DNA from: an uncultured Desulfobacteraceae bacterium
Lineage (GTDB): Bacteria > Desulfobacterota > DSM-4660 > Desulfatiglandales > HGW-15
Length of the DNA stretch: 39,084 nucleotides
Direction of reading: 5' to 3'
NCBI GenBank assembly: GCA_964497115.1
Contig: CAZCCX010000001.1
Span: 1 to 39,084, forward strand
Shown here: in pieces, positions 12,083-36,226 of the stretch
Numbering within the stretch: position 1 is the first letter of the stretch
Layout of the letters: each line of letters starts with the position of its first letter
Notes under the pieces: model-generated
What the model was told of the DNA's origin: nothing
The model's database searches: none
Seen by the model: only the letters and a program-made list of their open reading frames with translations
Position numbers and translations under genes: made by a program

Positions 12083-12139
12083 TACTCAAGTTGTACTACT
12101 CAAGTTGTATTTGACATGCTGGAAATAAACGTGTAAAAG
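12083..12139 (+). promoter_or_regulatory. Tandem direct repeat abutting a candidate sigma70 promoter upstream of TSUP cassette 1
   Basis: TACTCAAGTTGTA occurs at 12083-12095 and again at 12097-12109 (14-nt period). It is followed immediately by TTGACA (12111-12116), a 17-nt spacer and TAAAAG (12134-12139). The ATG is at 12178 with a GGAGAGGAGG RBS. Confidence 0.3.
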
Positions 12140-12177
12140 TGCTTGTGCCAAAAATCACAAGGGAGAGGAGGCGATGA

Positions 12178-13272: not shown

Positions 13273-13288
13273 GTTGGAGGGAAAAGAC

Positions 13289-13717: not shown

Positions 13718-13751
13718 GGAGCTGAATAAAAAAAACGTGACAAAAAGAACC

Positions 13752-14249
13752 TTATTTTTCATCGTCATCTAAATGTTTCAGCGCCTTGAGAATACCCATG
13801 GGGCTCGATCCCATGGCGAGCATCTCGATTTCCTCTTTCCGTTTCTTGTCATGCTCGAATTTCTTCCTGATTCTGGCTTCATAGGCGTCCTTGAGAACGC
13901 CCAGGAGCTTGTCGAAATTGTAAGGCTTTTCAAGGTAGCCGAATGCCCCCAGCTTCGTGGCTTCCACCGCGGAATCGATTGAGGCAAAACCTGTCAAAAT
14001 AATCACTTCCAAGAACTTATGCTTCTTCTTCAGGATCTGGAGGAGTTCCATACCATCCATGCCGGGCATTTTAAGATCCAGGATGGCCACGTCGAACGCG
14101 CCTTTCTTGGCGGCCTTGACGGCCTGCTTGCCCTCAGTGGCGGTGGTCACATCAAAATCCTTCAGCCCGAGCCGCTCTGCAACGGTCGCAAGAAATTTCT
14201 CATCGTCGTCAACGATGAGAAGCCCTATCTGTTTTTCTTTATCAGTCAT
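13752..14249 (-). CDS. Single-domain response regulator (REC plus about 45-aa charged tail)
   Basis: ORF 13752-14267. The ATG at 14249 has a GGAGG 7 nt upstream. REC motifs: LLIVDDDEKF, DVAILDLKMPGMDG, VIILTG, YLEKP. Confidence 0.85.
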   Translation of the reverse strand: MTDKEKQIGLLIVDDDEKFLATVAERLGLKDFDVTTATEGKQAVKAAKKGAFDVAILDLKMPGMDGMELLQILKKKHKFLEVIILTGFASIDSAVEATKLGAFGYLEKPYNFDKLLGVLKDAYEARIRKKFEHDKKRKEEIEMLAMGSSPMGILKALKHLDDDEK

Positions 14250-16874: not shown

Positions 16875-16977
16875 GGCATTGATCCCTTTTTTTAACCTTT
16901 TCTTCAAGAAATAGGCGGATCGTCTAATGACCGCCGCTGCCCAGGATGCCGGAGGCGGCCAAGGACAGGACCGCGAC

Positions 16978-18497: not shown

Positions 18498-18878
18498 ATG
18501 ATTCATATGAAGATCCTTGTTGTTGACGACGAAAAGAAGATTGCCGACGCTTTGGCTCAAAGGCTGGTGCTGAGGGGTTTTGATGCCACACCGGTCTATG
18601 ACGGAAGGTCCGCTCTTTCCCGGTTGAGAAGGGATGATTTCGATAGTATGGTTTTAGATCTCCGTCTGCCGGATATCGATGGGATTGAGGTTCTCAGAAA
18701 GATCATGGAGACCTCACCGGACATGAGGGTGGTCATCCTGTCCGGCCATGCCAATGAGCAGGATTTTATGATTTGCTTTGATCTCGGCGCGATTGCCTGT
18801 TTTCATAAGCCCGCAAAGATCTCCAAACTTGAAGAGGCCCTAACCCAACGGCCTGAGAAAAGAGATGAATTCCATTAG
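18498..18878 (+). CDS. Single-domain response regulator
   Basis: [49 protein letters not shown]. The stop overlaps the kinase start by 14 nt. Confidence 0.85.
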   Translation: MIHMKILVVDDEKKIADALAQRLVLRGFDATPVYDGRSALSRLRRDDFDSMVLDLRLPDIDGIEVLRKIMETSPDMRVVILSGHANEQDFMICFDLGAIACFHKPAKISKLEEALTQRPEKRDEFH

Positions 18879-20625
18879 TAGACTGACAACTCAGTTTGCA
18901 CCGAAGTTCTGGAATGCCGGGACATCCATGGCTCAAGGTCAGACCCTGTTCAATTACAGGAGATTCTACCTCGTTTCTTTTTCGCTTCGAGCCTTGGTCT
19001 CCATCGTCCCCATGGCGATCCTGCTCATATTTACTTATATGCTGGAGGATACGGCGATCAAGAATGAAAACCATCTTCGAACAGTCCGTTTGACATCCAA
19101 CACGAGGCGGACCATCACGTATTTCTTGCAGGAACGGTTGGACGCGCTGAAGTTCATTATTCAGCAAAAGAGAATCGAAACGCTAAAAGATCCAAATGAG
19201 TTGCCACAGGTTCTGTACAATCTCAAGATGGGGTTCGGCGGCTTTGTAGACCTGGGGCTGATCGATGGTTCCGGTTTGCAGATAAATTATTCCGGACCTT
19301 TTTTACTCACAGGAAAAGACTACAGGAATCAGGAATGGTTCAAAAAGTGTGCTGAGGACGGCTTGTATGTCAGTGATGTATTTATGGGTTACCGGAATCT
19401 CCCTCACATGATCGTCGCAATAAGATGGCCCATGGAGAATGGCGGATTTCATATCCTCCGTGCAACACTGGATATCCAAAAACTCATTCAAATCCTGTCT
19501 TCACTGGAACTCACTGAAGGGAGTGAGGCCTTTCTTTGCAGCCGTGACGGTTTGCTTCAGACCCCCTCCAAGTATTATGGGGAGATGCTCGAGAGAATCG
19601 ATTTACCTATGCCCGAATATTCAACGCATTCTCAGGTCATTGAGACCGTAGATCGGGCAGGCGATCCTATTTTGATCGGGTATGCCTACATAGAAAACTC
19701 TCCCTATATCCTCATGTTGGTCAAACGAAGCGTAGAGATCATGAAGGGTTGGGTTTCTATGCGCAAGGAAATCAGCTGGTTTTTTGGGGTGAGTGTCGTG
19801 GTTACCCTGGTTGTCGTCTTGGGTATATCCACATTAATGGTGAACAAGATCTATGATGCCGATCAAACAAGACTGAAGGCTATCGAACGCCTTGAAACGT
19901 CCAGCAGGCTGATCTCTGTTGGTCGATTGGCGGCCGGTGTCGCCCACGAGATCAATAACCCGTTGGCCGTCATCGGAGAGAATGCGGGGTTGATTAAGGA
20001 TCTTTTCTCCTTGAGAAAAGAATACAAGCAAGATCAACACGTTATGGAACTCATCGACGCCGTGCTGGAGTCGGTGGAGCGGTCCGGTGAGATTACCAAA
20101 GAGCTTTTGGGGTTTGCCAGACACTTTGAGCCGAGAATTACGCCGATCGAATTGAATAGGGTCATCTCAGAGGTCCTGTCTTTCCATAGAAAGGAGGCCT
20201 TATACCGGAATATAGGCATCAATGTGGATATCCCGGAAGACATCCCCGTGATTCATTCAGACCATGGAAGGCTGCAACAGATCCTCCTCAATCTCATCAA
20301 CAACGCCTTCCAGGCCATGAAGAGCGGGGGATGCCTTGACATTTCAGTGAAAAGAGAGGGGATGGAGAGCGTCTCCATAAGCATAAGTGACACCGGCCCC
20401 GGCATATCACCAGAGGACCAAAAAAGGATTTTCGAGCCCTTTTTTACTACCAAAGGATCGGAAGGCGGGGTAGGCCTCGGGCTGTCCATTACGTTCGGGC
20501 TTGTGGGAAAACTCAAAGGTGATATTTCTGTGCAAAGCAAGCTTGGCGAAGGAACCGCTTTTGTGATCACCTTGCCGATAGCCATTAAAGGAGACACCAA
20601 GAATGAAGGTCCTGCTTGTCGATGA
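18865..20625 (+). CDS. Sensor histidine kinase with two TM helices and an extracytoplasmic Cache/PDC-like domain
   Basis: TM1 LVSFSLRALVSIVPMAILLIFTYML, then a loop of about 270 aa, then TM2 ISWFFGVSVVVTLVVVLGISTLMV. H-box AAGVAHEINNPLAVI, N-box LLNLINNAFQAM, G1 DTGPGI, F-box FEPFFTTK, G2 GVGLGLS. Confidence 0.85.
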   Translation: MNSISRLTTQFAPKFWNAGTSMAQGQTLFNYRRFYLVSFSLRALVSIVPMAILLIFTYMLEDTAIKNENHLRTVRLTSNTRRTITYFLQERLDALKFIIQQKRIETLKDPNELPQVLYNLKMGFGGFVDLGLIDGSGLQINYSGPFLLTGKDYRNQEWFKKCAEDGLYVSDVFMGYRNLPHMIVAIRWPMENGGFHILRATLDIQKLIQILSSLELTEGSEAFLCSRDGLLQTPSKYYGEMLERIDLPMPEYSTHSQVIETVDRAGDPILIGYAYIENSPYILMLVKRSVEIMKGWVSMRKEISWFFGVSVVVTLVVVLGISTLMVNKIYDADQTRLKAIERLETSSRLISVGRLAAGVAHEINNPLAVIGENAGLIKDLFSLRKEYKQDQHVMELIDAVLESVERSGEITKELLGFARHFEPRITPIELNRVISEVLSFHRKEALYRNIGINVDIPEDIPVIHSDHGRLQQILLNLINNAFQAMKSGGCLDISVKREGMESVSISISDTGPGISPEDQKRIFEPFFTTKGSEGGVGLGLSITFGLVGKLKGDISVQSKLGEGTAFVITLPIAIKGDTKNEGPACR

Positions 20626-20977: not shown

Positions 20978-21685
20978 ATGGAAGAAGAGATCGGGAAAAT
21001 CTGTGCCGAGGGATTGTCGTTCTTCGGAATGACGAATAGACTCATCTCTCACGAGTTAAAGAACATTCTGGCCATCACATCTGAAACGTTGGGACTGATG
21101 AATGAATTGGTGGAGCTGTCGGAAACAGGTGTGGCGTTGGAGCCCGGCAAGCTTAGCGCGCTGAGTGAAAGCATCATGGAAGAGGTTGAAAGGGCAAACC
21201 GGATTATTCGAAACATGAACACCTTTGCCCACAGCGTTGACGACTTTATCAGGGAGGTCGACCTCGGGCAGACTATAGGCCTCACCATGGAGATTTGCCG
21301 ATTGGACTCAGCCCTGAGAAAGACCGAGTTGAATCTGGTCGAGAGTGAGGCATGTACGATATACACGAGCCCCCTTTTTCTGAAGAACCTTCTCTACCGA
21401 GTCATAAACTTCTCTTTGCGTCAACCCGGCCGAGGAAATGAGATTCGAATTTCATTTGGTGCAAATGATCACGGGACGAGGATTGCCTTTTCCGGCCTCG
21501 CCTCGCCTATCCCCGGCGAATTCCCAACGAGAAAAGAGACTTTGCTTGCCGATGCGTTATCCGCAGAGGTATCACGCGACGCTGATGCAGGGGAACTGCA
21601 CATTGACCTTCCCAAAAGGATAGGGGAGAGTCTTATTCTTGAAATCAAGCAGAAACATAATAAGATCGCAGAATTTATAGATTAG
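20978..21685 (+). CDS. Cytoplasmic histidine-kinase-like protein with H-box but degenerate ATP-binding domain (candidate phosphotransferase or phosphatase)
   Basis: H-box-like LISHELKNILAI, and an N-box-like LKNLLYRVINFSL. I can find no DxGxG (G1) box and no GxGLGL (G2) lid. The C-terminal strands (AEVSRDADAGELHIDLP) resemble the end of an HATPase fold. There is no TM segment or sensor domain. Confidence 0.6.
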   Translation: MEEEIGKICAEGLSFFGMTNRLISHELKNILAITSETLGLMNELVELSETGVALEPGKLSALSESIMEEVERANRIIRNMNTFAHSVDDFIREVDLGQTIGLTMEICRLDSALRKTELNLVESEACTIYTSPLFLKNLLYRVINFSLRQPGRGNEIRISFGANDHGTRIAFSGLASPIPGEFPTRKETLLADALSAEVSRDADAGELHIDLPKRIGESLILEIKQKHNKIAEFID

Positions 21686-21711: not shown

Positions 21712-22056
21712 ATGCTCCTGGTAGAAGATGACTTAAAGATCGCTTCATTTGTCTCAAAGGGCTTCAGAGAGGCCCGATTTGCCCTGGATCACGCCGTCGA
21801 TGGAGATGACGGACTCTCCCTTGCGCTTAATACGCCATATGACGCGGCGGTCATAGACATCATGTTGCCCGGGATGGACGGCCTCCGTCTTATTGAGGAA
21901 CTTCGGAAGAAGCATATCCACACTCCCATCATCGTTTTGAGTGCCAGGAGATCGGTGGACGACAGGATCAAGGGGCTCCAGATAGGGGGAGACGATTATC
22001 TGACCAAGCCTTTTTCATCAGGATTGCAGACCAAAAGAACAGGACCATTACCTTGA
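21712..22056 (+). pseudogene. Truncated OmpR-family response regulator (receiver only; effector domain deleted)
   Basis: LLVEDDLKIASFV, AVIDIMLPGMDG, IIVLSARRSVDDRIKGLQIGGDDYLTKPFS. It then runs into unrelated sequence and stops. No winged-helix segment was found in any frame downstream. Confidence 0.55.
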
Positions 22057-22422: not shown

Positions 22423-23787
22423 CTAGCCTTCCATCCCGTAGCGTTTCAGTTTCCTCCAGAGGGAGACTCGATCGATACCCATGATCTTGGCCGCCCTGGT
22501 TTTGTTTCCGCCGCTTTTTTCCAGGACCCATTTTATATAATGTTTCTCCTGTTCATCGAGTGTGGGGATGGCAGACGGTGTATGACGGTAGGTCTCGATG
22601 GAGAGATTGCGGATAGATTCCGGAAGGTCCGCCGCCCGAACGGTATCGCCGTTCTCCAGGGCCACGGCCCTTTCGATGACGTTCTCCAGTTCCCTGACGT
22701 TCCCGGGCCACCCGTATTGGGTCAGCAGTCCCATGGCCTCCGGGTCGATGTGGCGGATATCTTTGCCCATGGCTTGGCTTTTTTGGGCCAGAAAATGGTT
22801 GGCCAGCAGAGGAATATCGCCTGACCGTTCCGTCAGCGGGGGAAGGCGGATTGTAATCACATTGAGACGATAATAGAGATCCTGTCGGAAATCTTCCGAC
22901 TCCACATCCTCTTTGAGGTTGCGGTGCGTTGCGGAGACAAACCGCACGTCGACCGGGATGGGCGAAAGCCCGCCGACACGCAGCAATTCTTTTTCCTGGA
23001 TGACCCGCAGAAGTTTCACCTGCATGGTTAGGGGCATGTCCCCGACTTCGTCCAGAAAAACGGTGCCGCCGTCGGCAAATTGAAGTAGACCGGCCTTATC
23101 GATCGATGCGCCGGTAAAAGCCCCTTTTTCATGACCAAACAGTTCGTTGGCCATCAACTCTTCGGTAAAAGAACCGCAATTGAATGCCACGAATTTCTTC
23201 GCGGATCGGCCACTCAGATCATGGATCGCCTTGGCGACCAGTTCCTTTCCCGTCCCGCTTTCTCCCAGGAGGAGTATATTCGTGTCCGAAGGGGCGATCT
23301 GCTGAACCGTTTCAAGCACCCCGTTCATGGACTCGCTCCTTCCGACAATGTAAGGAACCCGACTCGCCTTTTCGAGAGAGGCCCGAAGTTCAAGGTTTTC
23401 CATCTGAAGCCTTCGTTTAATCAAGGCCTCCCTGGCGACCTTTCGGACCTCGTCTATTTTATAGGGTTTAGCGATATAGTGATAAGCCCCCTCCTTCATG
23501 GCCTCTACGGCGCTGTCCACCGTTGCATATCCGGTGATCATAATCACCTCGGTGTAAGGCAGCAGGCGCCTGCTCTCCTCCAAGACCTTCATTCCGTCGA
23601 CATTTTCCATCTTGAGGTCAGTGATGACGAGATCAAAGATCGTGGTATTCAAGCACTCCAAGGCCTGCTTACCGTTGTCTACCGAAACGACGTCATAGCC
23701 TTCTTTTTCGAGGATATGCTCCAGATTCCTACGGGCCATATCCTCATCTTCTACGATAAGTATTCTTTCCTTAATGCGCTCCGCCAT
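22423..23787 (-). CDS. Sigma54-dependent response regulator (NtrC family: REC-AAA+-Fis) with canonical GAFTGA
   Basis: ORF 22423-23991. The likely ATG at 23787 (MAERIKERILIVEDE) overlaps the kinase stop by 17 nt. Motifs: GESGTGKE, GHEKGAFTGA, GGTVFLDEVGD, WPGNVRELEN, and the HTH GNKTRAAKIMGIDRVSLWRKLKRYG. Confidence 0.9.
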   Translation of the reverse strand: MAERIKERILIVEDEDMARRNLEHILEKEGYDVVSVDNGKQALECLNTTIFDLVITDLKMENVDGMKVLEESRRLLPYTEVIMITGYATVDSAVEAMKEGAYHYIAKPYKIDEVRKVAREALIKRRLQMENLELRASLEKASRVPYIVGRSESMNGVLETVQQIAPSDTNILLLGESGTGKELVAKAIHDLSGRSAKKFVAFNCGSFTEELMANELFGHEKGAFTGASIDKAGLLQFADGGTVFLDEVGDMPLTMQVKLLRVIQEKELLRVGGLSPIPVDVRFVSATHRNLKEDVESEDFRQDLYYRLNVITIRLPPLTERSGDIPLLANHFLAQKSQAMGKDIRHIDPEAMGLLTQYGWPGNVRELENVIERAVALENGDTVRAADLPESIRNLSIETYRHTPSAIPTLDEQEKHYIKWVLEKSGGNKTRAAKIMGIDRVSLWRKLKRYGMEG

Positions 23788-25282
23788 CTTCTTCTGTGAA
23801 GGGCAAGAAAACTGAAAATATCGTTCCTTCTCCCAGTTCGCTCTCGACCTCCATTCGCCCTCCGTGCTGCTCCAGTATGCCGTGGCAGATGGAAAGACCC
23901 AGTCCGGTGCCCCCTTGTTCCAATAGACTGTGCGAAGATGCGCCTGTTCGGACACTGCCGGCGACATCTTTAGTGCTGAAAAAAGGATCAAAGATTCTCG
24001 GGATGTCTTCTTCCGGAATGCCTTTTCCGGTGTCCTCCACCTGGAGATAGAATAACGCTTCCTCCTCTATCTTGCCGGCCCTGATGGTCAATCTCCCCCC
24101 GTCATTTTCCATGGCCTGCAAGCCGTTCAAGATCAGGTTGAGCAGGACCTGCTGAATCCTGCGACCATCCATATTCCCCTGGATGTCCTCAGGCACATTC
24201 ACGCTCAGTTCCACGTCTGCCGGCAGGTCGCCTTTTATCAGTTTAATGGTATCGTCCACAAGACTCTTCAGGGGCACCCGTTTCAAGCTGAATGTCCTTT
24301 CCCGGGAAAACTCCAGAAGTGCCTTGACAATGTCCCTCGCCCTATCGACCTGTTTTTCCGTTTCAGTCAGGAGCTGTCTCTTGTAATCCAGATCGGCCTC
24401 CTCCAATTCTTCCAACAGGATTTGTACCGAGGTGGAGATATTGTTCAAGGGATTGTTCAGTTCGTGGGCCACACCGGAGGTCAAGGTTCCCAGAGATGCC
24501 AGCTTTTCCGAATGGATAAGGCGTTCACTTCGCCTGTTCAGTTCTTTAATCATGTTGTTTAAACTGGTCACCAGGGTTTCAAATTCGTCGCCGGTTCCGA
24601 TCTCGGGGATGCTTTCATAGTCTCCCGCGGCAATCTTGTGAATGGCATTTTCGATGGCCTTGAGGGGGCGGTTGACGTTGAAGATCAGAAATAGAACGGC
24701 CAGAACGGATAAAACGATCATCCCTGCCAAGGCCATGAAATGATAAAGACTCGACTCTTTCATCAGCCTTTTGACATATTGGTGCTCTTTGTTGACCATC
24801 TTTTCCACATCGGTCGTCACGATTCTTCCGAGCGATTCGGTCTCGTTATGTGCACTTGATAAATCTCCGGTTGGCGTTTCGGCCGCTTTCAAGGCGCCGT
24901 CGTCCCGATAAAAACCCAGCACGGCGATCAGAGAATCCTTGTACCGTTGAATTTCGCCTATTATCTGGTCCAGGTTTTTTGCAGCCGTGTATTTCCCGTA
25001 ATAATCAACAATGTAGTGCATCTTCTCTTCGGCCTGTAGGATATAGGAAAGCGCGGACTTCAGGCTATTGACATCTAAGGAGAGGAAGTAGTTTTTTTCA
25101 TATCTCCGGGCCTCGAGTATGGTGTTGAGGAGGACGTCTTTCTCCTCGATGATCTGAAGTTTGCGATTAAGGATATCGTGTTTGTAGTAATTCAAAAACC
25201 ATATGAGTCCACCCGCCAGGATAAAGGCGGCAAAGGCAATCATGACTTTTCTTCTAATACTGGTCTTCATGGCCGATTCCAA
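23771..25282 (-). CDS. Sensor histidine kinase (2 TM, helical periplasmic sensor, HAMP, HisKA, HATPase)
   Basis: TM1 VMIAFAAFILAGGLIWFL, a helical loop of about 150 aa (EARRYEKNYFL), then TM2 FMALAGMIVLSVLAVLFLIF. HAMP (NRPLKAIENAIHKIAAGDY), H-box GVAHELNNPLNNI, N-box LLNLILNGLQAM, G1 DTGKGI, G2 GTGLGLS. Confidence 0.85.
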   Translation of the reverse strand: MESAMKTSIRRKVMIAFAAFILAGGLIWFLNYYKHDILNRKLQIIEEKDVLLNTILEARRYEKNYFLSLDVNSLKSALSYILQAEEKMHYIVDYYGKYTAAKNLDQIIGEIQRYKDSLIAVLGFYRDDGALKAAETPTGDLSSAHNETESLGRIVTTDVEKMVNKEHQYVKRLMKESSLYHFMALAGMIVLSVLAVLFLIFNVNRPLKAIENAIHKIAAGDYESIPEIGTGDEFETLVTSLNNMIKELNRRSERLIHSEKLASLGTLTSGVAHELNNPLNNISTSVQILLEELEEADLDYKRQLLTETEKQVDRARDIVKALLEFSRERTFSLKRVPLKSLVDDTIKLIKGDLPADVELSVNVPEDIQGNMDGRRIQQVLLNLILNGLQAMENDGGRLTIRAGKIEEEALFYLQVEDTGKGIPEEDIPRIFDPFFSTKDVAGSVRTGASSHSLLEQGGTGLGLSICHGILEQHGGRMEVESELGEGTIFSVFLPFTEEDGGAH

Positions 25283-25360
25283 CGGTTCTTGCCGGTTCTG
25301 TCAGAGGGATTATTTTACGGGAAGTCAAAACATAATAGAAATACTTATACACAAAGGGGA

Positions 25361-26212
25361 TCAAGAATAATAGGGAGAATCCACATCGCAGATCACGTCT
25401 TTGACATCGGGGACTTCTCTGACGGCATCCATAATCTCCAGAACCAGACCCTCCCTGATCTGCTCTCGAACCCGCCGCTGCAAATCCTGCCCGGCAATGC
25501 CCGTCTTCCTCAATTTTTGCCCACGGACCTTGATATGGACGATACCTGCATTTGAGGTCACTTCAGCGTCACATATTCCCTCAAGAGCCGCCTTGACATG
25601 AGCGGCTAGCGCCAAATCATCAATTGCCTTTTGGGATTCAGGGGTGGTCTGAAATTGCTCTAATCCCGAAGTATAACATATCATCTCTACGGCATCTGTT
25701 ACGGATAGTTTGTGAATATGGATGACCAAGTCATATAGGCTGGTATCCCATGTATCCATCCCATAGAGAGACTTGCTCCATTTTCTTCTCTCTTCATCGT
25801 CCTTTAGCAGGATATGCAAGGCCTCTTTTCTCGATATGCCTTCACGATCCATCTCGAGCCTCACACGGTCCTCTAACTCGGCAATAATCCTTACTTTCAG
25901 GACATGGGATATCCCCTTTACAAAGAAATGACCGGCCAAACCATGGTAGACGATATTGTCTTTTCTAAAATGATCCAGTATTTCCGCTTGAACGAATGAT
26001 ATGTATTTTTCTTTTTTCTGCGAAAGATGACTGAAGAATGACGGCGCATCATGAATGGCTCTTATGAGTTTTACCTCCGGGACATTAAACTCATCTGAGG
26101 CTTCAAAAAGAACACGCCGGGCAATGCATTCATACCCAAGCCGCTCTGCAACTTTCTCGGCAATCTCTTTGCCTTTGCTGTAAGAACCGCGACTAATCGT
26201 AATGATGGCCAT
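25361..26212 (-). CDS. Cytidylate-kinase-like family protein with C-terminal BON-like segment
   Basis: The N-terminus IITISRGSYSKGKEIAEKVAERLGYECI matches the Cytidylate_kin2-type degenerate P-loop. The C-terminal part, about 80 aa, is BON-like. AAGGAG RBS. The assignment is from motif memory. Confidence 0.6.
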   Translation of the reverse strand: MAIITISRGSYSKGKEIAEKVAERLGYECIARRVLFEASDEFNVPEVKLIRAIHDAPSFFSHLSQKKEKYISFVQAEILDHFRKDNIVYHGLAGHFFVKGISHVLKVRIIAELEDRVRLEMDREGISRKEALHILLKDDEERRKWSKSLYGMDTWDTSLYDLVIHIHKLSVTDAVEMICYTSGLEQFQTTPESQKAIDDLALAAHVKAALEGICDAEVTSNAGIVHIKVRGQKLRKTGIAGQDLQRRVREQIREGLVLEIMDAVREVPDVKDVICDVDSPYYS

Positions 26213-26240
26213 GATGAATCTCCTTTTTCTTGTCTCGGAA

Positions 26241-28055
26241 TTATTGAATTCCGTAAAAGAAATAGATGATTGTCAGCTCAACGACCAAGAAGATCACCGT
26301 CATTACGGCGCCCGCCTTGGCATAGTCGATCGTCCGATATCCCCCGGGTCTCATGATCAGGGCATTGACCTGGTGGGTCGGCAGGACAAAGGTGTTGGAG
26401 GCGGAAAGACCCACCACGAGTGCGGCCATCCGCGGGTCTCCACCGGCCATGACCGCCATATTCATACAGAGGGGAACCAGCAGGACCGTGGCGCCCACAT
26501 TGGAAACTACAAGGGTGAAAAAGGATGTCATCAGGCCGACCACGGCGAGGAGCACGATGGGAGAGGGTTGACCGATGAGGGCCAGGACCCTGTTGGCGAT
26601 GAAGGCGGCGGTGCCCGTTTTCTCAAAGGCGATCCCTAACGGGATGAGACCGGCCAGCAAGAAAACTGTCATCCAGTCCACGGCCCGGTAGGCTTCGTCC
26701 ACCGAGAGGACCCCTGTGATGATCATACCCAGGGCCCCGGACATCAGGGCCACCGAGAGCTGGATTTTGAGAAAAATAATCTGTGCCAGGGCCACGGCCA
26801 GCCACAACACGGCCAGTTTCGCTTTCTTGGGCCGCATGATCTCCCCCTCCAGCGGTGTGGCAAAGCTAAGCGCCCTGGGTTGCGGCCTGTTTTTCAGGAT
26901 GTGGAACCTCTCCCAGGGCCCCTGAAGGAGGAGTGTGTCACCCATTCTAAGAGGGACATGGGTGAGTCCGCTGTAAAAGATCTTATTCCCCTTGAACAGT
27001 GCAACGGGGTTGACGCCGTAGAGTTCCTTGAAATTGACCTCGCTCATCGTCTTGCCGATGAGTTCGGAGCGCGGGGAGACGATGGTCTCCGCCATTCCCG
27101 CATTGGTCCTGGACAGGTTCTCGACAAACACTTCAAGACCCTCCTTGATCTCCCACCCATACTCCTTGGCCAACTTCCTGACGTTTTTCTCTCTTCCTAC
27201 AACGGCAATGTCATCGCCGGCAAGGATCTGATCGATGCTTCGTGGAACAAAATTCTTTTCTTTTCGGGCGGCATGGCCGATACCCACCACGGTGACAAGG
27301 AACCATTGCCTGACCCCCAAATCCTCCAGGGTTCGCGGTCCCTTGAAACCGTCGGGGACATGGAGTTCGAAAATGGTCCCCAAGGCCCGGTATTCCTCCA
27401 TTAGGGCGGCCGTCACACCCTTGTCTGTATTACCTTCGCCTTCCGGGAGGATGAACCTGCCAAACAGGACAAAATAGAGGATCGCACTGGCAAGGAGGCA
27501 AATACCGATGGGCGTTTGTGTGAACAGGCCGAAGGGTTCCAATTCTTTGCCCCCCAGCACCATCAGATCGTTCAAGAGAATCGTGGGACTGGCGCCGACC
27601 AGGGTAATGGTCCCCCCGATAATGGCACAAAACCCCATGGGCATGAGGATTCGGGAGACGGGGATTTCCATTCGTTTCGCGATTCGCTGGGCAGCCGGTA
27701 GAAAGAGGGCGGCCGCCCCGATATTCTGCATCAAGCTGGAGATCAGCCCCACAGTCCCGGCGATAAGGGTGGTGACCCTCTTTTCACTCTTTCCCGCCAA
27801 CTTGATGATGGGACCGGCGACCTGATTCATCACACCGGTCTTATCCAGGCCGGCGCCGATAATGATAACGGCAATGATGGAACAGACCGCATTGCTGCTT
27901 AGGCCGACAAAGGCCTCTTGCGGGGAGACAAGACCGATCAGGGGCAAAAGAACCATCATCATGATTCCGACCACATCCACTCTCACCCACTCAAAGACAA
28001 ACAGGACAATCACGAAGACAAGCACAACCATCGTCATCAACATCTCAGGTGTCAT
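26241..28055 (-). CDS. SLC13/DASS-superfamily permease with two central TrkA-C (RCK_C) domains
   Basis: ORF 26241-28064. The ATG at 28055 lies 8 nt downstream of AAGGAG. Polytopic N- and C-terminal halves flank a soluble insert of about 180 aa with two RCK_C-like units (LEDLGVRQWFLVTVVGI...DDIAVVG and FKELYGVNPVALFK...GDTLLLQG). Confidence 0.85.
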   Translation of the reverse strand: MTPEMLMTMVVLVFVIVLFVFEWVRVDVVGIMMMVLLPLIGLVSPQEAFVGLSSNAVCSIIAVIIIGAGLDKTGVMNQVAGPIIKLAGKSEKRVTTLIAGTVGLISSLMQNIGAAALFLPAAQRIAKRMEIPVSRILMPMGFCAIIGGTITLVGASPTILLNDLMVLGGKELEPFGLFTQTPIGICLLASAILYFVLFGRFILPEGEGNTDKGVTAALMEEYRALGTIFELHVPDGFKGPRTLEDLGVRQWFLVTVVGIGHAARKEKNFVPRSIDQILAGDDIAVVGREKNVRKLAKEYGWEIKEGLEVFVENLSRTNAGMAETIVSPRSELIGKTMSEVNFKELYGVNPVALFKGNKIFYSGLTHVPLRMGDTLLLQGPWERFHILKNRPQPRALSFATPLEGEIMRPKKAKLAVLWLAVALAQIIFLKIQLSVALMSGALGMIITGVLSVDEAYRAVDWMTVFLLAGLIPLGIAFEKTGTAAFIANRVLALIGQPSPIVLLAVVGLMTSFFTLVVSNVGATVLLVPLCMNMAVMAGGDPRMAALVVGLSASNTFVLPTHQVNALIMRPGGYRTIDYAKAGAVMTVIFLVVELTIIYFFYGIQ

Positions 28056-28157
28056 TCGCCACACTCCTTTTCCATTCTCAAGGTCCGGATGGGTCTCATC
28101 CTTTAGAACACCGCTGCATTAAGAAAGCCCGCTTCTATTCTCTATTCTATTACACCC

Positions 28158-28214
28158 AAAAAAGCAGAAAATCCACTCTCCTGGCGACAAGGAGAGTCGG
28201 AGTATCTGCTTTTT
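28158..28214. terminator. Nested hairpin, likely a bidirectional intrinsic terminator
   Basis: Inner stem CTCTCCT (28176-28182) pairs with AGGAGAG (28190-28196). Outer stem AAAAAAGCAGA (28158-28168) pairs with TCTGCTTTTT (28205-28214). T-runs are present on both strands. It lies 34 nt after the stop of 28248-28805. Confidence 0.5.
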
Positions 28215-28247
28215 CAGATGGTTTGTCTGACGGAAATCAAGGGATAT

Positions 28248-28805
28248 CTAGAGCATTGAATAGACATAAACAGGCTGGGCAGGCCTTTCTCCCTCCTCGG
28301 TCCTGTTCACAAGCCCTTCTTGTTCCGCGTCGGAGACCACAAACTCGATGTCCTTGAATTCGTGAGTGATTTCTGCAAGGGCTTGATCCCTTTCACTGAA
28401 TTTGATCGCATGTGCAAAGGGGACGCCGAGCCTTTCGGCTTCCTTCCTGAATTCTCTCACGTTCTCTTCGGCGAGGGCGCGAAAGTCTTGGCAGAGCTGT
28501 TTGTGAGAGGAAGAAAACATCTTGAAGGTCTCAGAGGATAAAGGGGTCGTGTTCAAGGCCAATATCTCGTAGGACATTCTTTGGGCCATCTCCAGGGAAT
28601 AATCGATGACTCTCCTCGAAAAAGCGCTTTCCCGGCCGATCACGAGGAGTCTGCCGGGGTGTTCTTCAGTCATCTCTTCTTGGAATAGCTTGCGGGCGGA
28701 TTCCTGTTCTCCTGCCTCGGCAAATGCGATAGCCTCCTGCACCCGGTCCATCTTTTTACTGAGCCGGGTTGCCTTTTTCTTGAGTAAACCGAAGATTCGC
28801 GTCAT
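28248..28805 (-). CDS. USP-like protein with N-terminal basic segment and FAEAGE helix
   Basis: GGAGG RBS 9 nt upstream. N-terminus KKKATRLSKKMDRVQEAIAFAEAGEQESARKL. A USP-like core follows (RLLVIGRESAFSRRVIDYSLEMAQRMSYEILALN ... IEFVVSD). Confidence 0.6.
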   Translation of the reverse strand: MTRIFGLLKKKATRLSKKMDRVQEAIAFAEAGEQESARKLFQEEMTEEHPGRLLVIGRESAFSRRVIDYSLEMAQRMSYEILALNTTPLSSETFKMFSSSHKQLCQDFRALAEENVREFRKEAERLGVPFAHAIKFSERDQALAEITHEFKDIEFVVSDAEQEGLVNRTEEGERPAQPVYVYSML

Positions 28806-28855
28806 CTTTGAAGTCCTCCTTCATGCGATTTCATGTGGGACATGGATATGCGGTC

Positions 28856-29362
28856 TCAATCCCGCACGACCACCAGGGGGGTGGCCAGGTTCTGCCTGAT
28901 CTGTCTGGGCACCACATGGCGTCTCGGTTTGCCCGCCCCGCCCGGATCCGCATCCTGTCCTTCGTCATAGATGGTGAGCACCACATCCCTGTTTTTTTGA
29001 ACGTAATGAATAACTTCTTCGTCCGCTATGCCGTACTTCAGAGTCAGGTGAAAGGGGACCCCCGCATTTTCTGATTCGGGCAGGAGTTCATTAAGGTTCT
29101 TGCGAGCCTCGACCATAAGCCGGCCCGCCGTTTCATGTTCTCCCGCCTCGGCAAAGGTCACGGCCATCATGGACCCTTCAAGGTATTTCTTGACCACCTC
29201 CACGCGCCGGTGCACTTTCTTGAGATACGCATTGTAACGACCGGTCCTGATAATCTGCAGCACATTCAGTTCCATTTTCAAGCGCTGGCAGAGCTGCACG
29301 GCCTGGTGAAAGACCTTTCGCGTCGGTTTGACCCCGTCTATGGCCAACAAGACCTTTTCCAT
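28856..29362 (-). CDS. Universal stress protein family protein with internal FAEAGE insert
   Basis: KVLLAIDGVKPTRKVFHQAVQLCQRLKMELNVLQII, then the insert MMAVTFAEAGEHETAGRL, then the USP C-terminal half (EEVIHYVQKNRDVVLTIYD ... PLVVVRD). Confidence 0.7.
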   Translation of the reverse strand: MEKVLLAIDGVKPTRKVFHQAVQLCQRLKMELNVLQIIRTGRYNAYLKKVHRRVEVVKKYLEGSMMAVTFAEAGEHETAGRLMVEARKNLNELLPESENAGVPFHLTLKYGIADEEVIHYVQKNRDVVLTIYDEGQDADPGGAGKPRRHVVPRQIRQNLATPLVVVRD

Positions 29363-29373
29363 CGTCCCGACCT

Positions 29374-29559
29374 CTATACTCTCAAAACAGGGCGGTCTTC
29401 CACCCTTCGTTCCGCCCTTGGCCTGCTCTTTTTGCGGTTCTTTTTCATCGGTCTCTCATTCAAAAAAGCAAGGGCGGTCTTCCGGTCGCCGGCCTCGGCA
29501 AAGGTGATAGCGACCATCAGCCTATCGAGCCAGTTTAATGGTGTCTTTTCCCCGGTCAT
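29374..29559 (-). CDS. Small protein (61 aa) consisting of a FAEAGD helix plus a basic tail
   Basis: ORF 29374-29625, but the first 22 codons overlap the sigma54 promoter. The ATG at 29559 has a GGAGG 6 nt upstream. Translation: MTGEKTPLNWLDRLMVAITFAEAGDRKTALAFLNERPMKKNRKKSRPRAERRVEDRPVLRV. Confidence 0.5.
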   Translation of the reverse strand: MTGEKTPLNWLDRLMVAITFAEAGDRKTALAFLNERPMKKNRKKSRPRAERRVEDRPVLRV

Positions 29560-29607
29560 TTTCATCCTCCTCTGGTGGATGTTGATGTGGTGACTTGCCC
29601 CATCATT

Positions 29608-29626
29608 GAGCAATAGATGTGCCATT
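29608..29626 (-). promoter_or_regulatory. Consensus sigma54 (-24/-12) promoter driving the FAEAG/USP operon
   Basis: The minus strand reads AATGGCACATCTATTGCTC. TGGCAC is at 29624-29619, followed by 5 nt and then TTGC at 29613-29610. This is an exact match to TGGCAC-N5-TTGC with GG-N10-GC spacing. It lies about 50 nt upstream of the ATG at 29559. Confidence 0.7.
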
Positions 29627-29711
29627 ATCCCTTAAGGTGGCATATCTATTTGATATAATTACTTAAACTCGTAGAGAAGCGGATGAGAGAGACAAAACAC
29701 TATTGTTGCGC

Positions 29712-29778
29712 TTTGTAACGGATAGGGTGCATTGTATAATTTTTATTTTGATATCAAATGGTTATGAAGCGTTACAAA
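29712..29778. promoter_or_regulatory. Inverted repeats upstream of the sigma54 promoter (candidate activator-binding sites) overlapping a possible Lon promoter
   Basis: Perfect palindrome TTTGATATCAAA (29747-29758). A 9-nt inverted pair: TTTGTAACG (29712-29720) and CGTTACAAA (29770-29778). TTGTAA-16 nt-TATAAT (29713-29740) faces the Lon gene. The region lies 90-170 bp upstream of the -24/-12 element. Confidence 0.35.
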
Positions 29779-29954
29779 AAGGAAAGGGGTGTTTCAGATT
29801 GCAACAGGTTGGCGGCTTGAGATGATATCGGGTCACCGAAGAGGTGAAAGATATCTGTCTTGCGGAGGAATAGTTGGGCCTGTCGATAAAACTCGCTTGC
29901 GAAAGAAGCCTGCGGCATCTAATATAGTATCATGCGAAGAATCCTGGAGGGCCC

Positions 29955-32036
29955 ATGCGAATATTCAAAAAGGATGTAGAGATGGAGGAACTTCCCGGTG
30001 ATATCGAAGAACTCCGTGAGACCGTGCTCAAGGCCAGGATGCCGCCCGATGTAGAAACGGTGGCCCTCAAAGAGACTGCAAAACTGTCCAAAATGAGCCC
30101 CTCCTCTGCCGAATATACCATTGGCACCAACTATATCAGCTACCTCGTTGGTCTTCCCTGGAACAGGGTCACGGAAGACAATCTGGATATGAAACGGGCG
30201 GAGTCTATTCTTGATGAACAGCATTTCGGCCTCAGGGAGGTCAAGGATCGAATCCTGGAGCACTTGGCGGTCAGGATCATGAGATTGAGCCGAAGCCACC
30301 GGATCCTGGTCGTTGACGACGAAAAAATGACCCGCAAGAATCTGGACCACGTCCTCACGAAGGAAGGGTTCAGTGTGGTGACCGCCGCCAGCGGTGCGGA
30401 GGCCGTCGAATACCTGGATAAGGACGATTTTGATGTGGTTGTGACGGATTTCAAGATGGAAAAGGTGGACGGCATGGGGGTCCTGGAGAAGACCAAGGCG
30501 AAGGATCCGGGTATCGAGGTCATCATGATCACCGGCTACGCCACGGTGCCGACAGCCGTAGAGGCTATGAAGAAAGGGTCTTATCAATTTCTCTCCAAAC
30601 CGCTGAAGCTCGATGAGATCAGGTTGACGGTCAGCAATGCCCTGTCCAAAAAGAATGCCCGATTAGGCTCGCGAGGACCCGCTCTCTGTTTTGTCGGGCC
30701 GCCCGGCACGGGGAAGACATCACTGGGCATGTCTATTGCCAGGAGTCTTGAGAGAAAATTCATCCGCATGTCTCTGGCAGGGATGAAGGATGAGGCCCAA
30801 ATCAGGGGTCATCGGCGAAGCTATGTGGGGGCCCTGCCGGGACGCATTATTCAGGAGATCCGGCGGATCGAGACCAGAAACCCGGTTTTCATGCTGGATG
30901 AGCTGGACAAGATCGGGCAGGACTTCAAGGGAGACCCTGCATCGGCCCTGTTGGAAGTCTTGGACCCTGAGCAGAATAGTCACTTCATGGATCATTACCT
31001 GGATGTGCCCTTTGATCTTTCCAGCGTGATGTTTATCGCCACGGCCAATACTATTGATCCCATACCCGCCCCACTTCTGGACCGTCTGGAGATCCTTCGG
31101 CTCTCCGGTTATTCGGAGGAAGAAAAACAGAAAATTGCTTTCAGCTATTTGATTCCCAGAGAGATTGAAGAGGCGGGGCTCTCGGATCACCCCCCCGTCT
31201 TTGCCCCTGAGGCCGCGCATAAGATCATCAGGGAATACACAAGGGAAGCGGGGCTCAGGAACCTCCAGAGGCAGATTGCCTCAATCTGCAGGAAGATGGC
31301 CAGAGAGACGTTACAGAATGAGGGGCGGATGGCGACGGAAGTGATTACCCCGGAACGGGTCGAGGCGTGGCTTGGACCCAGGAAATACTATTTCGAAGTG
31401 GCCGAGGCCAAGGAACGAGTCGGCGTGGCCACGGGCCTGGCCTGGACCGAGGCGGGGGGAGAGATCATTTTCATAGAAGCTACCAAGATGCGCGGACGAG
31501 GCCGGCTGATCTTGACCGGGTCTCTCGGGGAGGTCATGAAGGAGTCTGCACAGGCGGCATTGAGTTATATCCGGAGCCACACCCGAACGCTGAATATTGC
31601 GGAGGATTTTTTTGACGATTGCGACTTGCATATCCATATTCCCGCCGGCGCCATCCCCAAGGACGGCCCCTCCGCCGGACTGACCATCGCTGTTTCCCTC
31701 ATCTCACTCCTCACCGACCGGCCGAGCAAACGGGAGGTGGCCCTGAGTGGAGAATTGACGTTGAGCGGGAGGCTGCTCCCTGTGGGGGGCGTGAAAGAAA
31801 AGGCCATGGCCGCTCATAGAGCGGGTGTGAAATGCGTGGTCTTTCCGGCCAAAAACAAGGCGGACCTGCGTGAGATCCCGGAAGATATCGAAAAGGAGTT
31901 AGAAATTATTACCGTGAACGAACTGGAAGAAATTGTGGATCTGGTCCTGAAGCCAGTAGAACCTTCAGGTGCGATAACGCCATCGCGTGTTAAACCTTCA
32001 ATCAAGAAGTCCCCTTTCTCGCCTGCTGTGCGTTGA
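29955..32036 (+). CDS. lon: LonA-type ATP-dependent protease lacking the LON N-domain and carrying an inserted response-regulator receiver domain
   Basis: GGAGG RBS. Residues 1-112 match the helical segment preceding the Lon AAA+ module ([32 protein letters not shown]). Residues about 116-233 form a REC domain ([32 protein letters not shown]). Then Walker [10 protein letters not shown], Walker [25 protein letters not shown], catalytic Ser in PKDGPSAGL and catalytic Lys in GGVKEK. Confidence 0.9.
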
Positions 32037-32303: not shown

Positions 32304-32348
32304 TTCCAGGGACCAGAACGGACTGCCGAACACAAAAAATGATTTTTG

Positions 32349-34135
32349 ATGATGAAAAAGCGGCCGAATAATCTTCATTTGAGCCCTGCGGAACTGATCC
32401 GTGGGGCAACCCCTCAAAAAAAGCGCCTGAATCAGTGGCTCGCAACGGCCATATGCGGCAATGATATCACTTCATCCTGTCTTTACGTCGCAGCCATCGC
32501 ATCTGTTTATGCTGGCGTACTCGCCCCCCTGGTCCTGCTTATGGTGGGGGGCGTCCTCTATTTATACAAAAAAATCTACACCGAGGTCGTGGAGGCCCTC
32601 CCACTGAACGGCGGGGCGTACAATTGTCTCCTCAACAGCACATCAAAATTTAGCGCTTCATTGGCTGCCTGCATGACCATTCTTTCCTACATTGCTACAG
32701 CAGTCATATCCGCCAAGACGGCAGTTGAGTATCTTCACGACCTTGTCCCTTCAATTCCTATTACTGAGACGACAGTTGGCATCCTCGGCATTTTTGCCTT
32801 GCTGACTATCCGGGGAATTACGGAATCGGCCATAGTCGCCCTTATTATTTTTATATTTCACATCACTATCCTCATTGCCTTCTGTGTACTGGGTTTTTCC
32901 AGTTTTCCTTTGGATTTTCATATCCTTCGAGCGAATCTTCTCACAATGCCTCATGGAGACGGGTTGCTGATGGCTGTTTTTCTGGGGTTTTCTTCGGCTC
33001 TTCTGGGGGTGAGGGGCTTTGAAAGTTCGGCCAATTTTGTCGAGCAGCAAGACCAAGGGGTGTTTCGTAAGACTCTACGAAACATGCTTGTGGCGGTCGT
33101 TATTTTCAACCCCTTAACTTCCATCATCGCCCTAAATCTATTGCCATTAAAAGAAATCGTTGAACATAAGGATTATCTCCTTGCTCATGTAGCTCTGGCA
33201 CAGGGGGACACCTATTCATGGTGCTGGTTATAGTTGATGCTGTGGCCGTCCTGTCGGGGGCTGTTCTCACCAGTTTTATGGGTGTTACGGGTCTGATACA
33301 TCGTATGTCGCTGGATCAATGCTTTCCTCAGTTTCTGTTGAAAGCAAACAGTCGCGGCACTTTTCACCGCATCGTCATCGGTTTCTTTTTGCTTTGTTCT
33401 TCCATTTTATTGATCACAGGCGGGAACCTACTTAATCTTGCCGGTGTTTACACCATCTCCTTTCTTGGAGTCATGACCCTGTTCGGATTGGGTAACATAC
33501 TTTTGAAGATAACAAGAAGGGAGCTCAAGCGGACTTATCGGGCCGGATGGATGACTGTTCTTGTTGCCATTATGGCAATCAGCCTCGGAATCGCAGGTAA
33601 TATCGTTATCGATCTCAACAATTTTTTCTATTTTCTGGATTATTTCATCCCTGCCGTTCTGGTGGTTGCCCTCATGTACCTTCGTATCCCTATCTTGAAG
33701 TCTGTCTTGATGATGGCCAATTACACGATGACCAAACTCCTTGTATGGCGGAGCAGTATTATAGACCGGATTTCAGAGATCAAAAATCAAGGGGTCATTC
33801 TGTTTACAAGGGGAGGCCGCTTGGACCTTCTGCATGAGGCTTTCACCTATATCATCAAGAATGAAAGCAGTCGTCATGTCATACTGGTACATCTTTACAA
33901 CTCACCTGATAACAATGAAGAAAAGACTATAAAAGAGGCGTTAAATTCCCTCAATCAGATATTCCCTTCTCTTGAGGTAGAACTTGTTGTCAGGGAAGAC
34001 CGATTCGGACCCGAGATTATCGAAACACTTTCTCGCGAGTTTGGGGTGCTCAAAAACAACATGTTTATCGGTGCGCCGGAAGAGAAACACAATTTCTCCG
34101 TCCAAGATCTCGGTGGGGTCCTCATTATCTTCTAA
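32349..34135 (+). pseudogene. APC-superfamily amino acid/cation permease with cytoplasmic C-terminal domain, interrupted by a -1 frameshift at a G5 run
   Basis: ORFs 32346-33233 and 33218-34135 are the N- and C-terminal parts of one permease (ICGNDITSSCLY, LPLNGGAYN ... IVDAVAVLSGAVLTSFMGVTGLIHRMSLDQCFPQFLL). Adding one G to GGGGG at 33203-33207 joins them as ...VALAQGGHLFMVLVIVDA.... Confidence 0.7.
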
Positions 34136-34867: not shown

Positions 34868-36226
34868 GTGAAAATCATCATTGTCGGTGCCGGTGAAGTC
34901 GGTTATCACATCGCACAGAAGCTTTCCGAAGAAAACCAGGACGTCTTTCTGATAGATAAGGCCCCTGAGAAGGTCAAGCGTATCACCGAGAACCTGGATA
35001 TCCAGGCCACTGTGGGATCAGGGACCAGCCCTCGAATGCTGAGGAACTCCGGCGTCGGCGAAGCGGAACTTCTCGTCGCCGCGACAGACAGTGACGAGGC
35101 CAATCTGATAGCCTGTTTGTTTGCACGCCACCTGAACCCTCATATTCTCAAAGTGGCCCGCGTGCGCAATCCCGAATATCTGGAAGAAAAGGACCTCCTC
35201 TCCCAGGATTTCCTGGCTATTGATCACATCATTAATCCGGAATCCGTCATGGTTGAAACCATCTTGACCCTGATGACGGTGCCGGGGGCCTCCGACGTCA
35301 TTGATCTTGCCGATGGACGAGTCAAGTTGTTCGGAGTCACCATTCGGCTGGATTCCCCCCTTGTAGGTCGCCGTCTTCTTTCCTTTAAGAAACCGGAGGG
35401 AAAACTTCTTGTCGGGGCCATTGTGCGTGGAGATCAAGTCATTATTCCCCGGGGTGAAGATACCCTTCAGGCCCATGACCTGGCCTATGTGGTCGGCAGA
35501 ACGGATGAACTTCCTGATCTGTTTAAGCTCCTAGATATCCAAGTCGAAGAATCCAGAAGGGTGATCATTGTCGGAGCCGGGCTCACCGGTACGGCACTGG
35601 CAACGGCCCTGGACAAGACCAAGGTCAATGTGAAGATTCTCGACAGGGATAACCAGCGGTGTACAGACCTGGCTGATAAACTGGAACGCGTGATTGTTAT
35701 TAACGGAGACGGGTCGGACAGAGCCCTGCTGGAAGAAGAGAATATCAGGGATTGCGATTTCATGGTTGCAGTCACAGATGATGAAGAACACAATGTCATG
35801 ATCTCACTCCTGGCAAAAGGGTTGGGGGCCAAGAACACCGTCACGCGCATCAGCAAGTTCAGTTATATTCCCCTGGTCTCCGCCATCGGCCTTGATGCCA
35901 TCGTGAGCCCGAGACTCTCCGCCGTCAGGGCCATCCTCCAATACATTAGAAAGGGTAAAATCATCTCCGTCGCCCCGTTAAAGGGAGAGCATGCCGAGGT
36001 GATCGAGGCCGAGGCCCTGGAGACCTCCAAAATCATAGACGTCCCACTTTCAAATGTGAATTTCCCCAAAGGGGCGCTTCTGGGGGCCATCGTCCGCGAC
36101 GGGGAGATCATTATTCCGCGAGGCGACAGTGTGGTCAAGCCAAAGGACCGGCTGATTATCTTCACCCTCAGAGAGGCGGTTCCGAAACTGGAAAGGCTAC
36201 TTACCGTTAGACTGGAGCACTTCTAA
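34868..36226 (+). CDS. trkA: Trk potassium uptake system NAD-binding subunit TrkA (two TrkA-N + two TrkA-C)
   Basis: GTG start. Two Rossmann motifs (IIIVGAGEVG and VIIVGAGLTG), each followed by an RCK_C unit. The stop overlaps the trkH ATG (TAATG). Confidence 0.9.
   Translation: MKIIIVGAGEVGYHIAQKLSEENQDVFLIDKAPEKVKRITENLDIQATVGSGTSPRMLRNSGVGEAELLVAATDSDEANLIACLFARHLNPHILKVARVRNPEYLEEKDLLSQDFLAIDHIINPESVMVETILTLMTVPGASDVIDLADGRVKLFGVTIRLDSPLVGRRLLSFKKPEGKLLVGAIVRGDQVIIPRGEDTLQAHDLAYVVGRTDELPDLFKLLDIQVEESRRVIIVGAGLTGTALATALDKTKVNVKILDRDNQRCTDLADKLERVIVINGDGSDRALLEEENIRDCDFMVAVTDDEEHNVMISLLAKGLGAKNTVTRISKFSYIPLVSAIGLDAIVSPRLSAVRAILQYIRKGKIISVAPLKGEHAEVIEAEALETSKIIDVPLSNVNFPKGALLGAIVRDGEIIIPRGDSVVKPKDRLIIFTLREAVPKLERLLTVRLEHF

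Follow-up and report, generated by a model that had tools for sequence, protein, structure and literature searches.

The window analysed here is a complete metagenomic contig of 39,084 bp from an uncultured Desulfobacteraceae bacterium. It encodes a LonA-type protease with a response-regulator receiver domain (REC) inside its polypeptide, named REC-Lon below, next to a divergent operon that includes the genes of a HAMP sensor histidine kinase (HK) and a sigma54 enhancer-binding activator (EBP2) (Table 1). A preliminary description of this stretch proposed that one kinase controls both transcription, via EBP2, and proteolysis, via REC-Lon, and our analysis follows up this proposal.

Table 1. 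Genes and sequence elements of the REC-Lon locus and additional kinase-like genes of the window.
Feature	Position	Strand	Description	Basis
REC-Lon	29955..32036	+	LonA protease without N-domain, receiver inserted, 693 aa; 3-helix bundle ~11-110, REC 117-225, AAA+ 239-456, Lon_C protease 464-665	Pfam, TIGR00763, PDB alignments
Receiver insertion in REC-Lon	30285..30668	+	Residues 111-238	PDB alignments, AF2 model
EBP2	22423..23787	-	Sigma54 enhancer-binding activator, AtoC-like; REC, AAA+ with GAFTGA, HTH_8	Pfam
EBP2 receiver	23437..23763	-	Residues 9-117; sister paralogue of the Lon receiver	
HAMP-HisKA-HATPase_c sensor kinase	23771..25282	-	AtoS-like	Pfam, NCBIfam
Cytidylate-kinase-like (CMK-like) protein	25361..26212	-	Family 2; in most orthologous operons	
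SLC13/DASS-type anion transporter (CitMHS)	26241..28064	-	With TrkA_C domains	
p185	28248..28805	-	185 aa, N-terminal FAEAG motif; no family match	
USP-like protein	28856..29362	-	168 aa, internal FAEAG motif	
FAEAG-motif protein	29374..29559	-	61 aa; first gene past the sigma54 promoter	
Sigma54 promoter	29609..29624	-	TGGCAC-N5-TTGCT; directed away from Lon, towards the 61-aa FAEAG gene	
Upstream activator site 1	29705..29719		Palindrome GTTGCG-CTT-TGTAAC	
Upstream activator site 2	29791..29805		Palindrome GTTTCA-GAT-TGCAAC; 86 bp from site 1	
Sigma70-like promoter candidate for REC-Lon	29713..29740	+	TTGTAA-16-TATAAT; overlaps upstream activator site 1	Consensus match only
dCache kinase	18865-20625		Second kinase-like gene of the window	
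HisKA-only protein	20978-21685		Kinase-like	

Pfam identifies in REC-Lon the domains Response_reg (residues 117-225; 98 bits for PF00072, with a cut-off of 30), AAA (244-381; 9e-24), Lon_lid and Lon_C (464-665; 7.7e-84 for PF05362). The model TIGR00763 ("endopeptidase La") matches with 731 bits, above its cut-off of 608, and NF008053 with 596 bits, under its cut-off of 891. Solved LonA structures align across the protein at E-values of 1e-165 or better, so that residues 11-110 correspond to LonA 245-344 and residues 239-683 to LonA 351-793. The alignment begins only at LonA residue 245, and Pfam finds no match to the LON substrate-binding domain (PF02190) in REC-Lon. The 128-residue receiver stands in for a 6-residue loop that in canonical LonA joins the 3-helix bundle, at its last helix, to strand beta1 of the P-loop; the solved structures nearest to this receiver are those of NtrC1 (1ny5, 1zy2) and of another NtrC-family regulator. 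Read as a LonA protease, the predicted protein thus departs in one defining feature, the N-domain, and read as a response regulator it shows the full set of expected sequence features.

The receiver residues D121, D122, D165, K215 and P216 do not vary among 46 REC-Lon homologues, and either T or S occupies position 193; also invariant are the Walker A motif GPPGTGKT, the Walker B residues DE and the catalytic residues S573 (in DGPSAG) and K616. Both halves of the protein, receiver and protease, are under purifying selection. Since the phospho-acceptor set is invariant in full, REC-Lon itself is likely to be phosphorylated. In an AlphaFold2 (AF2) model of the monomer built from 46 sequences, with a mean predicted local distance difference test score (pLDDT) of 70.6 and a predicted template modelling score (pTM) of 0.45, the fold of the receiver is predicted with confidence (pLDDT 79-89). 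As helix 94-111 continues straight into beta1 of the receiver, and the unbroken receiver helix alpha5 (219-238) ends just four residues before beta1 of the AAA+ domain (243-247), the receiver is predicted to be tightly coupled at both ends.

At least 120 clusters of REC-Lon proteins were found, and the best 120 listed are all at least 71% identical, have about 665 aa and show a common architecture; genome representatives belong to Desulfobacterales, Desulfobulbaceae and Nitrospirota. REC-Lon is therefore a large, conserved and uncharacterised family, not an oddity. A full-text literature search found a receiver-Lon fusion nowhere described. In public data these proteins are annotated as "endopeptidase La" only, which is consistent with the passing TIGR00763 match, and because of this label their signalling role is invisible in current annotation.

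The receivers of REC-Lon and EBP2 were compared by BLASTP, which gave 65 identities in 118 positions (55%; 76% positives, no gaps, E = 2e-44) and so bears out the roughly 65 of about 117 counted by hand in the preliminary description. In a MAFFT identity matrix of the nine receivers of the window, this pair again reaches 55%, and either member shares 18-38% with the other seven. The latter had been regarded as one separate lineage, which did not hold: only the receiver of a second activator (EBP1) and both domains of a tandem-REC protein group together, at 76-85% identity, while the rest are diverse.

To place the Lon receiver more broadly, we scanned it against 1.84 billion representative proteins. 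As full-sequence scores sum over domains, multi-REC proteins dominated the ranking; we therefore re-extracted 420 individual REC domains and compared single domains. The nearest single-domain matches are fragments of REC-Lon proteins and the N-terminal receivers of sigma54 activators, at 54-57% identity, and among the latter P0201, P0228 and P0259 carry the loop KM(E/Q/K)xVDG. Among these domains, all Lon and EBP2-type receivers are at least 49% identical to the Lon receiver of the window, whereas the best of the rest in the 150 listed proteins has 47% and most have 46% or less.

Two sequence signatures distinguish the Lon and EBP2-type receivers. The first, already noticed in the preliminary description, is KME(K/N)VDGM (DLKMENVDGM in EBP2) in place of the KMPxMDG of most receivers: the proline of this beta3-alpha3 loop is replaced in 23 of 24 Lon receivers and 13 of 14 EBP2-type receivers, as against 41 of 382 others. 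The second is the combination of N14 and H17 on helix alpha1, present in 23/24 Lon and 11/14 EBP2-type receivers and in none of the 382 other top-scoring ones; K103 and R108 are likewise common to both types. The alpha1 and KME signatures are shared derived characters of the two lineages. Helix alpha1 is the main kinase-docking helix of response regulators, as in the HK853-RR468 and Spo0B-Spo0F complexes. This indirectly suggests that the Lon and EBP2 receivers have a kinase-docking alpha1 surface in common.

In a neighbor-joining (NJ) tree of 125 REC domains (114 columns, 500 bootstraps), the EBP2-type receivers are monophyletic and 23 of the 24 Lon receivers form their sister clade. The smallest clade with both receivers of the window contained, in 417 of the 500 bootstraps, only Lon receivers, EBP2-type receivers and four single receivers that adjoin REC-Lon in the loci L005 and L008; with these four allowed, the predicted grouping of the Lon receiver with the activator receiver was recovered. 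The observed paralogy is confirmed, the two receivers belonging to sister lineages, but it is not recent. A recent local duplication or gene conversion was considered and rejected: Lon receivers are 56-75% identical between species, but only 46-58% identical to the activator receiver of their own genome, and the mean identity between Lon and activator receivers is the same within and between genomes (0.515 and 0.514). By these comparisons the duplication is ancient, not local.

The genomic neighbourhood was compared in 17 species-representative REC-Lon loci besides the window. In the window and in 10 of these 17 loci, the HAMP kinase and the activator lie within 10 kb of REC-Lon, as the preliminary description would lead one to expect; three further ones are truncated at the end of the contig or flank. 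One of the 17 without the pair (L004) and an activator locus without REC-Lon nearby (L090) are weighed below. Overall the trio is linked in at least 12 species of Desulfobacterales, Desulfobulbaceae and Nitrospirota, in several gene orders. The order of the window, EBP2<-HK<-(CMK-like)<-SLC13<-p185<-USP<-FAEAG divergent from REC-Lon, is found in L001, L002, L007, L074 and L075, and, interrupted by contig or flank ends, in L003, L039 and L006; the flank fetched for L003 includes the kinase and stops short of the activator. Elsewhere all three genes are on one strand, either as HK, EBP, REC-Lon with gaps of 6 and 97 nt (L009) or as REC-Lon, HK, EBP (L013). The pair HK-EBP lies within 4-8 kb in L010, L011 and L067 (Nitrospirota), downstream in L067, and the contig of L012 ends at the point where L067 has this pair. 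Seen from the activator side, at least 11 of the best 120 EBP2 orthologues have a longest contig equal in size to that of a REC-Lon match, and in L088 and L091, looked up from this side, REC-Lon adjoins the operon divergently, in the usual way. Because the linkage survives several rearrangements and spans two phyla, a functional tie of the trio is suggested.

L005 was tried as a further exception and rejected, since L087 shows the full FAEAG-USP-p185-SLC13-CMK-HK-EBP2 operon on the same 380-kb contig, about 10-20 kb off behind an inserted module. This module of about 10 kb (255-9684 in L005/L008; 1-3512 in L087) comprises an activator, a USP, a long CMK-like protein, two single receivers, a kinase and two USPs. 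L008 carries the same second two-component module as L005, and only that module is in view there. The module kinase in L005/L008/L087 has a related DHp domain, and the single receivers of the L005/L008 module group near the Lon/EBP2 clade but lack the alpha1 signature. L013 has a second REC-Lon copy (10450-14043), immediately preceded by a HAMP kinase orthologue and a small ORF of 124 aa; it was discarded as a candidate minimal HK-REC-Lon pair, as it is frameshifted at about residue 484 and has no protease domain, which marks it as a decaying duplicate. The copy of L013 in the same-strand order REC-Lon, HK, EBP is the intact one.

The activator itself fits a sigma54 enhancer-binding protein, with its receiver, Sigma54_activat domain, GAFTGA loop and HTH_8, together with a -24/-12 promoter and palindromic upstream sites; the best NCBIfam model is AtoC, under its cut-off. 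The end of the kinase gene overlaps the EBP2 start by 17 nt (23771-23787), as had been noted and as follows from the coordinates of the two genes, and the true start of the kinase is probably the ATG at 25270. Helix 1 of its DHp domain, HELNNPLNNISTSVQILLEEL, is near-invariant among orthologues and differs from that of the dCache kinase of the window; the DHp domain of the HAMP kinase is of the NNISTSVQILLEEL type. The statement that this is the only kinase present is true of the cluster next to Lon and not of the window, which has two further kinase-like genes (Table 1).

The sigma54 promoter between REC-Lon and the operon is the sole match to TGGCAC-N5-TTGCW with at most one mismatch in the window, and 11 orthologous loci have an equivalent promoter on the minus strand; REC-Lon is transcribed divergently from it, in agreement with the preliminary description. 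The 15-bp palindrome GTTGCA-N3-TGCAAC has two matches in the window versus 0.01 expected, a count that is not independent, as the pattern was taken from these loci. The positional consistency across loci is independent: orthologous loci have the palindrome on the upstream side of the sigma54 promoter, frequently in two copies at a spacing of 86-88 bp, and 1 Mb of unrelated loci contains it once. Sharing of these sites was rejected as a general reason for the linkage, since they are not adjacent to Lon in L003, L005, L009, L012 and L067. Just upstream of the sigma54 promoter is the centre of an inverted repeat, AATAGATGTGCCA / TGGCATATCTATT (29612-29650), found in the window only, which yields a mirror sigma54-like element, TGGCAT-N5-TTTGA, facing Lon. 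Sigma54 control of Lon was rejected as well, because TGGCATATCTATTTGA, the similar plus-strand element at 29638, represents the mirror arm of this repeat and is confined to the window, without a counterpart in orthologous loci.

Three consecutive proteins of the operon (29374-29559, 28856-29362 and 28248-28805) share a motif of about 25 aa, (F/W)x(D/E)(R/K)(L/M)MxA(I/V)(T/S)FAEAG(E/D/Q)xxTA, which has no match in Pfam or NCBIfam. It occurs 26 times in 18 REC-Lon loci versus once in 62 loci with ordinary Lon; besides the window, loci that carry it are L001, L002, L003, L006, L007, L010, L012, L013, L039, L067, L087, L088 and L091. It adjoins REC-Lon in Nitrospirota too, despite the other gene order there, and is absent from L090 and L092, where REC-Lon is absent as well. 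The motif may be a degron or an adaptor motif. A protein identical to the 61-aa FAEAG protein has been called in public data (P0271), and a homologue search gave nine close matches. One match of the representative scan, P0236 (568 aa), is a REC-Lon fragment without protease domain whose C-terminus turns into the FAEAG motif (…FTEVTFAEAGEFDTARVFL…); it may be a genuine fusion, or else an artefact of assembly or of a frameshift.

We consider it fairly probable that these genes form a branched system of the AtoS/AtoC type, in which the HAMP kinase phosphorylates both EBP2, to induce the operon, and REC-Lon, to control proteolysis; one kinase with two signature-bearing receivers would be the simplest reading of the sequence data. 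The kinase would pass phosphate to the two sister receivers, and phosphorylated EBP2 would bind the two GTTGCA-N3-TGCAAC sites and fire the sigma54 promoter. The latter would drive the genes of the 61-aa FAEAG protein, two USP-like proteins, the SLC13 transporter and the CMK-like protein, and probably those of the kinase and the activator as well. In NtrC1 and DctD, receiver dimers control the formation of the AAA+ ring. By analogy, phosphorylation of D165 may alter ring assembly or pore gating of Lon, and the induction of stress and transport genes would thus be coupled to regulated proteolysis. Control of Lon by the receiver is an analogy based on the position of the latter and its NtrC1-like nature, the AF2 model being monomeric and of moderate quality (pTM 0.45); phosphotransfer to both receivers, the sign of the phosphorylation effect and the substrates of Lon are points that we infer.

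Several observations weigh against the branched system. The strict union of the Lon and EBP2 receiver clades was obtained in just 115 of the 500 NJ bootstraps (23%), a low support that is expected because only 114 columns were available. Lon and activator receivers are on average as similar between genomes as within them, so that covariation adds no signal to the static signature that they share; none that is lineage-specific is detectable between the two receivers, whose interface is nearly static. The single correlated change is the loss of R12 in both receivers of L010/L011, where the DHp domain differs too. The interface of the two receivers, broadly defined, is 54% similar, hardly more than the 52% of the whole domain. 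L004 has REC-Lon without kinase or activator within 10 kb. Conversely, L090 has CMK-HK-EBP2 but no REC-Lon within 9-10 kb, and FAEAG genes and activator sites are missing from it too; L092 probably resembles it. The kinase nearest to REC-Lon in L005/L008 has diverged in its DHp domain, though REC-Lon retains the signature. Finally, while the branched system is well supported computationally, its phosphotransfer steps are predictions.

Some of these points support an explanation by common descent and functional neighbourhood, in which REC-Lon long ago acquired its receiver from an AtoC-like activator, the genes stay linked through the operon products or co-regulation, and REC-Lon receives phosphate from another kinase or from acetyl phosphate. 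The old duplication without within-genome convergence agrees with it, as do the occurrence of REC-Lon without the two-component system in L004 and of the two-component system without REC-Lon in L090; the association of FAEAG proteins with REC-Lon loci (26 in 18 versus 1 in 62) likewise fits a link by substrates or adaptors. Yet the alpha1 signature is kept in both lineages and found in 0/382 other receivers, there is no other kinase consistently nearby, and same-strand orders HK-EBP-REC-Lon and REC-Lon-HK-EBP exist. We therefore regard this explanation as unlikely, though worth keeping in mind.

A second explanation assumes pairing of the two receivers through their alpha4-beta5-alpha5 faces, by which REC-Lon would capture and perhaps degrade the activator, instead of or besides being phosphorylated itself. 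Receivers of the NtrC1/DctD type dimerise through this face, NtrC1 (1ny5) is among the best structural matches, and the face is very similar in both receivers (TV..AVEAMK.G.Y....KP.K.DE.R). However, many NtrC-family receivers have the motif AVEAMK.GA, and the invariant phospho-acceptor set of REC-Lon argues for its own phosphorylation; we regard such pairing as improbable. Finally, a generic NtrC-family similarity without specific meaning, to which the best NCBIfam matches of the receiver (generic AtoC, GlrR and NtrC models) might point, is very hard to reconcile with an identity of 55% as against at most 47% for the best other receivers among the 1.84 billion representatives, with the derived and shared N14+H17 and KME signatures and with the conserved synteny.

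Beyond the branched phosphorylation of EBP2 and REC-Lon, a more far-reaching possibility, which we put forward as speculation with some chance of being right, is that REC-Lon represents an undescribed class of response regulators with protease output and the FAEAG proteins are its dedicated substrates or adaptors, so that one kinase both induces them and sets their lifetime, the receiver having taken over the substrate gating of the lost N-domain. If true, control of FAEAG induction and lifetime by one kinase would constitute a built-in feed-forward or pulse circuit.

Further observations concern the operon and its surroundings. The genes of p185 and the SLC13 transporter are 183 nt apart, and this gap contains a terminator-like hairpin with an 8-bp stem and a T-rich tail (28175-28197, minus strand), which may end or attenuate the sigma54 transcript ahead of the transporter, kinase and activator genes. 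TrkA/TrkH potassium-uptake genes are situated near the module in the window (34868-37674, plus strand) and beside EBP2 orthologues (L087/L089, 11529-13591); together with the TrkA_C domains of the SLC13 transporter, this hints at an ion or osmotic-stress theme. A gene for an AA_permease_2 protein with a USP-like C-terminal tail is split into overlapping ORFs (32346-33233 and 33218-34135, plus strand), which could reflect either a frameshift or a sequencing error, and unsplit 764-aa permease-Usp fusions occur near EBP2 orthologues (L090/L092). Elsewhere in the window, the GAFTGA loop of EBP1 (14442-15938, minus strand) is degenerate and reads GTTGPC; the usual KP after beta5 is missing from the EBP1 receiver and from both receivers of the tandem-REC protein next to it (16071-16907, minus strand). 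A 114-aa OmpR-type receiver without DNA-binding domain (21712-22056, plus strand) looks like a truncated response-regulator gene.

The REC-Lon family is abundant in sulfate-reducing and Nitrospirota lineages. It would offer a natural experiment on substrate gating by the N-terminal region of Lon and on receiver control of an AAA+ ring outside the sigma54 activators, and the kinase, the activator and REC-Lon make up a testable trio for which the promoter and activator sites are defined and candidate substrates exist. With LonA proteases (MEROPS S16; 7p6u, 3m6a, 7fd4), REC-Lon shares the 3-helix bundle, the AAA+ domain, the lid and the Ser-Lys protease. It differs from them in the loss of about 244 residues, the N-terminal globular domain together with the long helix, which in LonA build the substrate-selecting "helix triangle" (PMC8519571), and in the gain of the receiver.

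REC-Lon resembles the activators NtrC1, DctD and AtoC in that an AtoC/NtrC1-like receiver directly precedes an AAA+ core and that an AtoS-like kinase is the partner. Unlike in these activators, the AAA+ domain of REC-Lon is a Lon unfoldase and not a sigma54 remodeller, there is neither GAFTGA nor HTH, and the long coiled-coil linker of NtrC1 is replaced in the AF2 model by a short continuation of alpha5.

To our knowledge, two-component-regulated proteolysis is known only where a separate adaptor regulator, RssB or CpdR, conveys the signal to ClpXP, and a receiver wired into Lon would be a new response-regulator output. The relevant systems are the ArcB-ArcA/RssB network of E. coli, reportedly described by Mika and Hengge in 2005, and the CckA-ChpT-CtrA/CpdR pathway of Caulobacter, reportedly described in 2006 by Biondi et al. 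and by Iniesta et al. As in the system proposed here, one phosphodonor serves two receivers in both of them, one belonging to a transcription factor and one to the control of an AAA+ protease, so that transcription and breakdown are coordinated. RssB and CpdR are separate adaptors or regulators of ClpXP, whereas in the present case the receiver is located within the polypeptide of the protease itself, which is a Lon, and has its sister paralogue in the activator receiver.

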